64,000 nt of DNA from a virus. Lineage: Duplodnaviria > Caudoviricetes. Below, one piece after another: positions 31,253 through 64,000 of this stretch; position 1 is the stretch's first letter, and every line of letters starts with the position of its first letter. A program made the position numbers and the translations under genes. The notes below the pieces were generated by a model. It was not told the DNA's origin and did no database searches. It was given only the letters and a program-made list of their open reading frames with translations. The stretch covers positions 9,381 to 73,380 of the IMG/VR virus record IMGVR_UViG_2513237213_000004; one strand, written 5' to 3'.

Positions 31253-31286
31253 CCGGCACCTCCCCGCAGGTACTATGCCTATTCTT

Positions 31287-31342
31287 ATACATTTACGCCA
31301 TTACACCGTTATAACTGTATACCTTTACAATGGTATAATGTC
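31287..31342. repeat. Octamer array 2 (7 units)
   Basis: ATACATTT ACGCCATT ACACCGTT ATAACTGT ATACCTTT ACAATGGT ATAATGTC. Confidence 0.8.
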
Positions 31343-31355
31343 GTATATTTTCATG

Positions 31356-31425
31356 TGGCAGTCAAAGGAGTCGAACCTTTACCTCTGCTGGAATCGCAGT
31401 GTTCCTACCGTTAAACTATCCCGCC
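31356..31425 (-). pseudogene. Degenerate tRNA/tRNA-like element (Gly-TCC-like, shortened anticodon arm)
   Basis: Intact D arm GTTT-AACGGTAG-GAAC and T arm AAAGG-TTCGACT-CCTTT; acceptor stem has 2 mismatches; anticodon arm CTGC-GATTCCA-GCAG is about 2 nt short. Confidence 0.65.
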
Positions 31426-31426
31426 A

Positions 31427-32151
31427 TAAAAGGGGCCTGCGCCCCATTCCCGTTTAGGCCACGGGCAAGACCTCTGCAATCAAACCTACAACTCATTGCA
31501 GCCCTTAGTTGTCGTATAAGGTTTTTAGACCACGAGCAGAGGAACATCGAACATACCAGCTACTAGTGCGAACACCTATCTGTAATGCTCTATGAACCCT
31601 TGTTCTCTTGTGGCAAACTAGGTACGGTAGCTACACTTCTTTTTTAAGAAACCTATTGACTTTCCTGGCTCCCAGGTTATACTTTCTTGATTTCCAGGAA
31701 ACGGCTTCGGGCAGACTATCCCCTGCAAAGGAGATAGATTAGACTGTCCGTAGATACTTTCCGTCATTCCGAGGTATCCGTATCCGTGGTGCTCCTGCCA
31801 ACCAATGAAATCATCGGTCAGCCATAGCCTATCAGTCAATTACGCCCCAGACTGTCCCAGGTTTCCCCGGCAAGACTATGAACCCTTCCCACCACCGTTA
31901 TCGTGGCAGTCAAGCGATTAACCCTCCGCGCCCTATTTTTAACCATGGCTTTCGCTTTAGGCTTAACGAGGTCTTGCAGCGCTTTTCAACCCCTTTGGTA
32001 ACTCCCCAATAGCACCGAACAGACCAGGGAGGCCCCGCATATTCTCTGCATCAGCTATGCGACACTGGCAATTTATATACCGCAGGCAGCGGATAGGAAC
32101 CAGGCAGCGAAATAACGTATGCCACCGGGAACCCCTTCGGCTCACACCGAC
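31427..32151 (-). ncRNA. Candidate long structured RNA A (about 725 nt)
   Basis: Strong promoter, no credible ORF or SD, many hairpins, ends in GGGGC-GCAG-GCCCC-TTTT just before the tRNA-like element. Confidence 0.55.
31656..31683 (+). promoter_or_regulatory. Antisense promoter TTGACT-16-TATACT inside RNA A
   Basis: Read directly from the sequence; A/T-rich UP-like tract upstream. Confidence 0.5.
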
Positions 32152-45092: not shown

Positions 45093-45440
45093 TCATTTTT
45101 CTAACTCACCACGATAAAGTTGTAATGCCTGTGTCGCGGTCAGTTCATCGAAGGAATTTTCCAGGCTGCCTAACAATTTCATAGCTTCATCGCTGGCCAT
45201 GCCTGTGTTTTTCATGGCAAGGACAATATAAGCCAGAACAATGTCATTGAAACGGCCCGTGTCGAAAAGTTGGCAGCTATTATACTCAGCTTCATCCAAT
45301 GTTGTCATCGGTTTCACTTCGGATAATCCTTTGAGTGCTTCCTTCAAGGCTTGCTTGATGCTTTCCGGGGACCGATCCGGGTATTTCTTAGAAAACATTT
45401 CAAGTAGTTCTGCTAAGTTTTCTAACTGTGTATGATTCAT
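45093..45440 (-). CDS. Hypothetical protein
   Basis: SD AAGGTGG before the ATG at 45440 (track start 45521). Confidence 0.65.
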   Translation of the reverse strand: MNHTQLENLAELLEMFSKKYPDRSPESIKQALKEALKGLSEVKPMTTLDEAEYNSCQLFDTGRFNDIVLAYIVLAMKNTGMASDEAMKLLGSLENSFDELTATQALQLYRGELEK

Positions 45441-62680: not shown

Positions 62681-63292
62681 AATGGGGAAAATGAGAACTT
62701 GGGGAAGTGTGTTTGTGCGTGTCCCCATCCGCAGAAGTCCTCTGTCTAATCATCATACGAAACAGGGACTTCCTACCTAGTATAACATATGCAAAAAAAA
62801 AAAAAACAGTTAATCTCTATCTTTGGGCACAGTCCGTTTCTAAGCTACTTCCTACTACGCCCGCCGCGATAAGCACCCCTGAAACGCTTCGTAACGCCCA
62901 AACTTTGACATGGGAGATAAGCACTAAAACTATCTAAATTCATCGTATGTTTTTTTAAACTTCTTATTGACTTTAGCGTTATTTTATGATGGAAGCCGAA
63001 GGAAACGGGAGAGCAAAGCATAGTGCTACCTTAGACATCGAAAAGACAATAGTCTACTGTAGCACTACAACGAAAATTGATGGAATCCGTGAGGTTTCCG
63101 GTGTCGCTTTTCGCAATTCAATTAGTCATCGTCACTACAACGATACAGAGGTTTCATAGTGGTCTAAGTACCCCACACTACCACGCCCCTCGACGTGTTC
63201 CTCTGGCCCGGTTTATTTCAACCGTACTCTAGGCTCAATACCAATGTATCTTGCCCTTTTAGCCCCCGCAGGCTTCTTAACGCTCCATAAAC

Positions 63293-63334
63293 AAAAAATG
63301 CGTTGGTCTAATAGCCTTCCACGGCCCCAACGCA
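63293..63334 (-). terminator. Terminator/attenuator hairpin inside RNA B
   Basis: TGCGTTGG...CCAACGCA followed by T6. Confidence 0.55.
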
Positions 63335-63584
63335 CTGTCTATCTACGCTTATTATGGGAGTTAACCTGTTCTTCACCCACTTAGGTCATCGTCCTGTATT
63401 GAATAAACCAGGACGAACCCCGCCGACTTACTGCTGCCGCTGGCGATACGGTGGACTCTCTATGAGTTGCCAATTTATATACCGCCTGCTCGCGGTGGCA
63501 TCCATGCTTTCCCAGAATAAGGATCTGGGCGACCTATGGCGGCTTCTTCTCGCCATTGAGGACCATGAAACACCGCACAAGAAC

Positions 63585-63613
63585 TTGACGAGTCCCTTGT
63601 TTATATGTATAAT
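63585..63613 (+). promoter_or_regulatory. Promoter TTGACG-17-TATAAT (extended -10)
   Basis: Read directly from the sequence. Confidence 0.8.
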
Positions 63614-63619
63614 GGACTC

Positions 63620-63694
63620 ATAAACCAAATGTCAATCCGCCTGTTTGTGCGGTGATAGGACCTGGAAGTACGCCAATACTTCTAGGTCTTTTTT
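63620..63694 (+). ncRNA. Candidate counter-transcribed small RNA (about 75 nt)
   Basis: Bounded by the 63585 promoter and terminator GACCT-GGAAGTA-CGCCAA-TACTTCT-AGGTC-T6 (63659-63694); no ORF. Confidence 0.6.
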
Positions 63695-63737
63695 CATGCT
63701 CTTTTTCGATTGTCATGCGTGATTATCCAGCGTTTTC

Positions 63738-63780
63738 TGTGGATAACTGCTATGCTCATATATTATCATAGTTATCCACA
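63738..63780. promoter_or_regulatory. Two perfect, inverted DnaA boxes
   Basis: TGTGGATAA at 63738-63746 and TTATCCACA at 63772-63780 (11-bp inverted repeat, AT-rich spacer). Confidence 0.8.
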
Positions 63781-63788
63781 AGAGTCAA
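63760..63788 (-). promoter_or_regulatory. Promoter TTGACT-17-TAATAT with a DnaA box in its spacer
   Basis: Read directly from the sequence. Confidence 0.65.
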
Positions 63789-63858
63789 TAAGGTTTATTC
63801 AGAAATGAACCATATTTTCTCTTGTGTCCCGCGAAAACACTGACCTCTTTGAAATTGA

Positions 63859-63981
63859 ACGCCATTACGCCATTACACCATTATACATGTGTGATACCGT
63901 TATAACGGTGTAATGGCTTGACTGTATAATGGTGTAGCGTTATAATGTTACACAGGTACAACGGTATAATAGTATAATGAT
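63859..63981. repeat. Octamer array 6 (about 15 units) containing a plus-strand promoter TTGACT-17-TATAAT (63918-63946)
   Basis: ACGCCATT ACGCCATT ACACCATT ATACATGT (gtg) ATACCGTT ATAACGGT GTAATGGC TTGACTGT ATAATGGT GTAGCGTT ATAATGTT ACACAGGT ACAACGGT ATAATAGT ATAATGAT; an SD GGGGAGG follows at the window edge. Confidence 0.9.
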
Positions 63982-64000
63982 ATGAAGGGGAGGAATACCA

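Follow-up and report, generated by a model that had tools for sequence, protein, structure and literature searches.

How does a phage-plasmid that encodes no recognizable replication initiator (Rep) protein start its own replication? The question is raised by a stretch of 64,000 nucleotides (nt) of a caudoviral genome (positions 9,381 to 73,380 of the IMG/VR record IMGVR_UViG_2513237213_000004; hereafter designated as the window), the end of which contains a gap free of open reading frames (ORFs) next to a parA gene. The window corresponds to C4:9381-73380 of a 10-contig, 3.63-Mb genome, and runs to the very end of the 73,380-bp contig C4. The ATG of the gene for the ParA ATPase is position 1 of C4, namely the first base beyond the window, and the ribosome-binding site of parA makes up the window's final bases; thus, C4 is a circular replicon rotated to the parA start. 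The gene groups on C4 are tail and head genes, a helix-turn-helix (HTH)/ImmA pair, and a T7-like replication set (a Gp2.5-like single-stranded DNA-binding protein, an exonuclease, a primase-helicase, and a DnaE-type polymerase adjoining parAB). As phage structural and replication genes are combined with parAB, C4 is a phage-plasmid, and no recognizable Rep protein was found beside the proteins listed above. The host, the genome of which encodes LpxC and is placed in the family Selenomonadaceae by its kinship to Megamonas, is a diderm firmicute. The ORF-less gap (62,690-63,800) is flanked by the ImmA terminator (~62,685) and the operator/promoter repeats of parA (63,810-64,000). A preliminary description of the window, made from the sequence alone, placed here a leftward structured transcription unit, RNA B, and suggested a Rep-less, RNA-primed and antisense-controlled origin. 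The comparative data presented below lead us to consider it probable that the 73-kb phage-plasmid is replicated, and its copy number controlled, from the region 62,950-63,790, which would be a Rep-less, RNA-based replicon under antisense control.

RNA B occupies 62,950-63,790 on the minus strand as a structured element of ~800 nt without a conserved ORF. Homologous gaps upstream of ParA genes were retrieved from IMG/VR (L007 and L008), metagenomes (L041, L038, and L037), and a Logan assembly (L197), and an additional homologue was found in the complete plasmid of Megamonas funiformis (G119:C2, NZ_CP048628.1). Invariant blocks of 20-30 bases alternate with variable stretches in these gaps; the ParA of L007 is 99% identical to that of the window, while its gap is only 74% identical. 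From the alignment of six homologues (A2), RNAalifold predicted 197 base pairs, of which 182 were retained after those touching the untranscribed promoter had been removed. Over the 182 pairs, 94.1% of the cells were paired, as against 36-44% when the partners were slid by 1-3 columns. Compensatory double changes occurred in 57 of the 182 pairs, a number reached in none of 500 shuffles (26.5 ± 3.4) and exceeding those of the slid controls (10-20). When the sequence of 62950-63750 was folded singly, the minus strand yielded -270 kcal/mol (z = -5.2) and the plus strand -235 kcal/mol (z = -3.3). Both the stability of the fold and the invariant G-U pairs, which are valid only on the minus strand, place the RNA on that strand. 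Conservation halts near 62,950, implying that the conserved RNA is ~800 nt long. No reading frame on either strand was open throughout the six homologues: single sequences hold scattered ORFs of 50-140 codons, the frames are interrupted at different places in each homologue, and the insertions and deletions among the homologues are not multiples of three. A protein-coding reading of the region was therefore dropped. Altogether, the sequence comparison indicates that a conserved, highly structured, non-coding RNA is encoded here, as the preliminary description had anticipated in proposing an ORF-less transcription unit under a promoter with DnaA boxes.

The leftward promoter was found at 63760-63788 on the minus strand, where it had been predicted. 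It comprises a -35 element (TTGACT, 63783-63788), a 17-nt spacer, and an extended -10 element (TAATAT, 63760-63765, preceded by TG); the TTGAC is invariant in all of the aligned homologues and the -10 element is conserved as well. RNA B would be transcribed leftward from this conserved promoter, with a probable start near 63750. A second TTGACA reported at 63635-63630 is present within a variable stretch and lacks conservation. A cluster of DnaA boxes (63723-63780) overlaps the promoter and the start site, comprising two perfect boxes and one 7/9 box at 63723. One of the perfect boxes (TTATCCACA, plus strand, 63772-63780) is situated within the promoter spacer and the other (TGTGGATAA, plus strand, 63738-63746) at ~+5 to +15 of RNA B. 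These two, 34 bp apart, are the only perfect DnaA boxes in the 73,380-bp replicon, for which ~0.56 are expected by chance, and the transcribed one is invariant in the six rows of A2 and in L197.

The first ~190 nt of RNA B (63562-63750, minus strand) form a variable leader, which is poorly conserved (A2 columns ~55-270), contains only weak helices (helices 1-3, 74-87% paired), and holds the target of a countertranscribed RNA. The gene for the latter, a small RNA of ~75 nt, lies on the plus strand at 63585-63696, with a promoter (TTGACG-17-TATAAT) at 63585-63613 and a terminator stem at 63657-63690 followed by a U-run. All six homologues retain the two promoter hexamers and the terminator hairpin, with stems that covary, whereas the body of the small RNA is variable; in five of the six copies, the small RNA folds as a single variable stem-loop plus the terminator. 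The antisense RNA proposed in the preliminary description is thus borne out by conservation. A constant promoter and terminator around a varying body is typical of the RNAs that govern copy number and incompatibility in plasmids.

The position of RNA B is constant. All seven phage-plasmid copies, and likewise that of the M. funiformis plasmid NZ_CP048628.1, begin directly upstream of parA and are divergent from it. The plasmid copy was matched by two covariance models, one of the central domain (R1, trained on seven RNA B homologues only, without RNA A, a second structured RNA of the window described below) and the other of the 3' domain (R3), with 54 bits (E = 1e-15) and 35.7 bits (E = 3e-8), respectively. 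The two matches are collinear, and the Megamonas RNA, divergent from the adjoining parA, possesses its own antisense promoter and terminator. NZ_CP048628.1 is not a phage but a 46-kb conjugative plasmid with genes for a MobA/MobL relaxase, VirD4, VirB4, VirB8-10, TrbL, topoisomerase III, ArdA, and ArdC, as well as toxin-antitoxin genes. No initiator was detected by Pfam in its 30 largest ORFs or by NCBIfam in the four of its ORFs left blank by Pfam; the PGAP annotation contains no Rep, and MOB-suite assigns no replicon type. The block of RNA, antisense RNA, and parA thus resides on two kinds of mobile elements, both without a recognizable Rep, which argues for a portable maintenance module. 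The preliminary description was also correct in that no Rep gene lies downstream of RNA B, which runs convergent to the HTH/ImmA pair on the opposite strand.

Two more distant relatives, L198 and L009 (ParA 68-70% identical), share a similar layout of promoter, DnaA boxes, and antisense gene, behind which lies an unrelated ORF-less body of ~0.9 kb. The likeness of L198 rests on an nhmmer match with an E value of 6e-6, and that of L009, for which the E value (0.28) is non-significant, on reading of the sequence. The pattern suggests an exchangeable replicon cassette, in which replicon types may be swapped. Two further DnaA boxes (TGTGGATAA and GTTATCCAC) occur where the ORF-less gap of L198 ends on its far (3') side (L198:2880-2935), so that this element is bracketed by DnaA boxes. 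The Megamonas leader contains direct repeats, namely ACTACTAAAAG repeated ~5 times and GTTTATA 3 times (L206:1860-1925, NZ_CP048628.1 ~45,290-45,360), which are positioned like the DnaA boxes of the phage-plasmids and may be iteron-like sites.

A Rep-less theta replicon of Firmicutes, oripLS20, is reportedly known on functional grounds from the work of Meijer and co-workers in 1995. To our knowledge, no RNA product has been described for oripLS20, and the Rep-less theta replicons of Firmicutes have not been linked to any RNA structure. This origin of the conjugative Bacillus subtilis plasmid pLS20 spans ~1.1 kb, contains DnaA boxes but no rep gene, and lies beside alp7AR (PMC8557374); its replication mechanism is described as still unresolved (PMC8557374). 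Both oripLS20, a class E theta replicon, and the ORF-less element encoding RNA B measure ~1 kb, lack a rep gene, carry one or more consensus DnaA boxes, are divergent from the adjoining partition operon (alp7AR and parAB, respectively), and occur on large low-copy elements of Firmicutes. By eye, oripLS20 also displays antisense-oriented terminators in a leader, an internal terminator with a U-run, and a GC-rich structured stretch ending in AAAGUCAA, and it shares with RNA B four short motifs in the same order and at similar spacing (CCAyAAUAAGCGU, GGAAACCUCA, CCnGUUUCCU, and AAAGUCAA). The two differ in that oripLS20 has been reported from Bacillus only and has its DnaA box in the middle of the element, not at the promoter. 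Neither R3 nor R2 (a model trained with RNA A included) matched oripLS20 (NC_015148.1:64464-65774), and a collinear 7-mer test was not significant, as 41 of 200 shuffles reached the observed value. A hidden Markov model of six pLS20-family origins matched the leader/antisense module of L008 only (E = 1.4e-6). By analogy, RNA B appears functionally close to oripLS20.

A second precedent comes from parABS (cluster A) mycobacteriophages such as RedRock, Alma, and LadyBird, which possess origins not of the RepA type (Wetzel et al. 2020, PMC7157519). There, the origin region of ~600 bp is marked by a non-coding RNA that lies directly upstream of parA and runs in reverse orientation; prophage maintenance depends on this region, which also suffices for autonomous replication (PMC7157519). 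As far as the published description goes, the likeness to RNA B extends to the plasmid state of the phage, the RNA divergent from parA, the absence of a conserved ORF, and the fast divergence of the region. The mycobacteriophages differ in having actinobacterial hosts and high GC contents, and neither DnaA boxes, antisense RNA, nor conserved secondary structure has been reported for their origins; RNA B is longer and its core far more conserved. The preliminary description knew of no described example in a firmicute phage, a statement that does not hold in view of oripLS20 (PMC8557374) and the parABS mycobacteriophage origins (PMC7157519) as functional analogues.

RNA B also invites comparison with ColE1 in its lack of an initiator, its long structured RNA upstream of the origin, and its short antisense RNA complementary to the 5' part. 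In the ColE1-type replicon, RNA II serves as the primer and RNA I as its antisense regulator, and no initiator protein is involved. Unlike RNA I, the antisense RNA of RNA B targets ~nt 55-135 rather than the very 5' end. RNA B further differs in its internal terminator, the DnaA box at its promoter, and its occurrence on low-copy elements with partition genes in Negativicutes. No sequence similarity exists between the two systems: the Rfam scan proposed in the preliminary description was run with Rfam 15, and cmscan matched neither the RNA I nor the RNA II family even at E <= 10. At both gathering and permissive thresholds, RNA B, RNA A, and their homologues matched no Rfam family, including ROOL, GOLLD, and OLE, apart from a weak throat-1 lead on RNA A (see below). 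We regard RNA B as best filed as a structurally defined variant, in Negativicutes, of the Rep-less, RNA-associated plasmid replicons.

The reading of RNA B as a replicon is derived from its constant adjacency to parA, the lack of a detected initiator, the antisense pattern, the DnaA boxes at the promoter, the exchangeable bodies, and the experimental precedents above. The context of RNA B fits the Rep-less, antisense-controlled origin of the preliminary description, as the RNA abuts parA and no initiator was recognized on either the phage-plasmids or the conjugative plasmid; the RNA may prime DNA synthesis, as RNA II of ColE1 does. According to the model we propose, theta replication of the plasmid-prophage would be initiated by full-length RNA B instead of a Rep protein; the RNA might serve as a primer, form an R-loop, or be the scaffold on which host replication proteins assemble. 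Binding of DnaA at the promoter and start site may tie the synthesis of RNA B to the cell cycle of the host. The number of full-length RNA molecules would be held down by the antisense RNA together with the internal terminator, and this would set copy number and incompatibility; the neighboring parAB would then segregate the plasmid copies.

The helices and domains 3' of the leader, all on the minus strand, can be delimited as follows. Helices 4-7 (63474-63561) carry two to four compensatory pairs each and include the stems ATGGCG/CGCCAT (helix 4) and CCCAGA/TCTGGG (helix 5), with double changes in three pairs each. The central domain (63347-63499, ~150 nt) is the best conserved part and scored 173.5 bits with R1. 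It contains a hairpin followed by UAUAUAAAUUGG, the helix TCGTCCTG/CAGGACGA (helix 12, double changes in seven pairs), and GUGGGUGAAGAAC...CUCCCAU. An internal attenuator-like domain (63275-63349) consists of helix 17 (TGCGTTGG/CCAACGCA, 63293-63334), directly followed on its 3' side by U6, and helix 16, in which helix 17 is enclosed; four and five pairs covary in helices 16 and 17, respectively. Inside a helix-enclosed insert at this site, the relatives, including the AT-rich Megamonas copy, possess an additional hairpin of the canonical terminator type with its U-run; this separate hairpin is missing from the window. Since helix 16 uses bases 3' of the U-run and includes four covarying pairs, a full-length RNA generated by read-through must exist. 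The 3' domain (62987-63283, ~300 nt), in which helices 23, 24, 26, and 30 covary, scored 153.9 bits with R3; it contains GUAGUGUGGGG...AGACCACUAU, CCGGAAACCUC, the nested hairpin AGTGCTAC/GTAGCACT with TAGAC/GTCTA (helices 29 and 30, double changes in one and three pairs, respectively), and CCCGUUUCCU. The stems named here by their sequences had all been picked out in the preliminary description, the terminator-like character of helix 17 included. At the 3' boundary (62950-62986), the motif CCAUCAUAAAA...AAGUCAAUAAG is followed by an AT-rich stretch, the GC content drops to 0.37-0.40, and conservation ends at about A2 column 965; this segment is possibly the RNA end or a transition point. The T14 run previously noted near 62800 is present at 62793-62806 (minus strand) but is specific to the window and absent from the homologues, lying outside the conserved element that ends at ~62,950. 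It may be the final transcription stop in this phage.

The window encodes a second ORF-less structured RNA, RNA A (31428-32151, minus strand; core 31961-32096), far from parA. R1 matched its core (31,961-32,096, minus strand) with 35 bits (E = 2e-10), and R2, in the training of which RNA A was included, scored 91 bits. As R1 was built from RNA B homologues only, its match indicates that the central domains of RNA A and RNA B are paralogous, and the paralogy is limited to this domain, as R3 found no match at RNA A. R1 also detected an RNA A homologue in the phage of L008 (L201), in which RNA A is conserved at 74% over ~460 nt; the central domain of RNA A was not found in the phage of L007. RNA A has neither a long leader nor an internal terminator, no perfect DnaA box is nearby, and no antisense gene was seen. 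It could be an unregulated version for lytic growth. Downstream of RNA A (31356-31650, minus strand) lie a tRNA-like element, which scores 36 bits with the Rfam tRNA model and is not called by ARAGORN, and a further non-coding stretch (GTAGCTACCGT...GCCACAAGAGnACAAGGG) that is conserved in both sister phages. The orphan motif throat-1 (RF03110), known from human throat metagenomes, aligns to RNA A via a hairpin followed by UAUAAAU, a CGGGG-hairpin(UUCAA loop)-CC, and UAAAnGGUnGAAGA. Its score of 18.3 bits on RNA A, compared with a gathering score of 124.4, does not support membership, and the motif is kept as a lead only; the throat-1 model matched none of RNA B, the RNA A homologue of the sister phage, and the Megamonas copy.

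RNA B could instead belong to the large ornate non-coding RNAs that, like ROOL and GOLLD, travel as cargo on phages and plasmids; it would then serve a purpose other than replication, and the site beside parA would be permissive or co-regulated. The long invariant blocks and the multi-domain fold are indeed typical of RNAs with tertiary structure, RNA A adjoins a tRNA-like element where the late operon begins, a setting usual for ROOL and GOLLD (PMC5737381), and ~180 loci around other ParA genes yielded no member of the RNA B family. We nevertheless judge this explanation unlikely: ROOL, GOLLD, OLE, and all other Rfam families yield nothing at E <= 10, the adjacency to parA is strict in eight independent replicons of two element types, and a cargo RNA would account neither for an antisense RNA of its own and the DnaA boxes nor for the lack of a recognizable Rep. 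A second alternative places the origin in the DNA, in that host DnaA would fire at the DnaA boxes and an AT-rich stretch, with transcription activating the origin or regulating parA and the RNA product having no role. The boxes conserved at the promoter, the further boxes at the far end of the L198 gap, and the view that oripLS20 uses DnaA (PMC8557374) are in line with such an origin. It is improbable in our opinion, as the compensatory changes reveal selection on RNA pairing over ~700 nt, which a DNA-only element does not impose, and the Megamonas copy keeps the RNA yet has no DnaA box. Finally, a long regulated leader or attenuator for downstream genes (the "attenuated leader for the replication block" offered as an alternative in the preliminary description) or a decayed protein gene, to which the internal terminator-like hairpin and the scattered ORFs of single sequences might point, is scarcely credible, as no gene follows in the orientation of RNA B, the next genes (ImmA and HTH) being convergent with it, and the frames are broken and shifted differently from homologue to homologue.

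Several observations weigh against the Rep-less replicon that we favor. The invariant blocks and the ornate fold exceed the needs of a simple primer. The paralogue RNA A lies far from parA, is without DnaA boxes, and is missing in at least one sister phage, and its existence could point to a role of the shared domain outside replication. The absence of a DnaA box from the Megamonas copy implies that control by DnaA is not universal. In L199 (ParA 65% identical), the gap is only 350 bp and contains no large RNA. A novel initiator could also be concealed among the small or unknown ORFs of the two replicons, and the GC skew of C4, which tracks gene orientation, is uninformative on the position of the origin. 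We tentatively consider a more radical possibility, about which we are doubtful: RNA B may represent a new class of large "replicator RNAs," in which an ornate RNA of ~0.8 kb has replaced Rep as the sequence-specific replication initiator in Negativicutes. If so, the folded core would be a scaffold or a self-processing primer, not a plain transcript, and RNA A could be a stripped-down version used outside the plasmid state, for instance in lytic replication; oripLS20 could then be a distant member of the same old, unrecognized superfamily of firmicute RNA replicons.

Besides RNA B, the parA promoter and the repeat region at 63810-64000 (plus strand) form a candidate parS or operator. Repeat units of this region (of the ACGCCATTAC, GGTGTAATGG, and TATAATGGTGTA types) recur at C4:40665-40725 (window ~31,285-31,345) and at C3:61171-61198. 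The former copies sit just downstream of the tRNA-like element following RNA A, and the latter are on another replicon, C3. The units common to the three places are candidate parS or operator sites. A third conserved stretch of ~350 nt, unrelated to the others, was found upstream of parA in L010 (5170-5520) and L011 (2075-2410), two further ParA relatives (53-56% identical) that share 75% identity in this stretch. The Megamonas plasmid also encodes a type III toxin of the CptIN family (L207:10424-11050, minus strand; NCBIfam, E = 1e-54), annotated as hypothetical by PGAP.

Further members of the RNA B family were sought widely. Nothing useful was obtained by blastn of the region against phage and plasmid collections, which may not include the record of the window itself, by a DNA search in 60 related genomes, or by an ImmA-based locus search among viral contigs, and a 26-base motif had no match in 185,579 species genomes. 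An exact 18-mer match on a 342-kb contig was discarded as a chance match within coding DNA. The ParA relatives in species genomes were at most 43% identical, none of them with an RNA of the RNA B type, and R2 recovered no further members from ~180 ParA-flanking loci and 150 genomes of the class.

RNA B constitutes a large bacterial RNA family absent from Rfam. As a replicon, it would account for the failure of replicon typing on plasmids such as that of M. funiformis, and the module could yield low-copy vectors, which are needed for Selenomonas, Megamonas, and their relatives. What RNA B adds to the Rep-less replicons is a secondary structure backed by covariation and divided into clear domains, along with an antisense RNA of its own and an internal terminator. 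Its occurrence on both phage-plasmids and a conjugative plasmid would offer a concrete, mutable model for how an RNA may replace an initiator protein.

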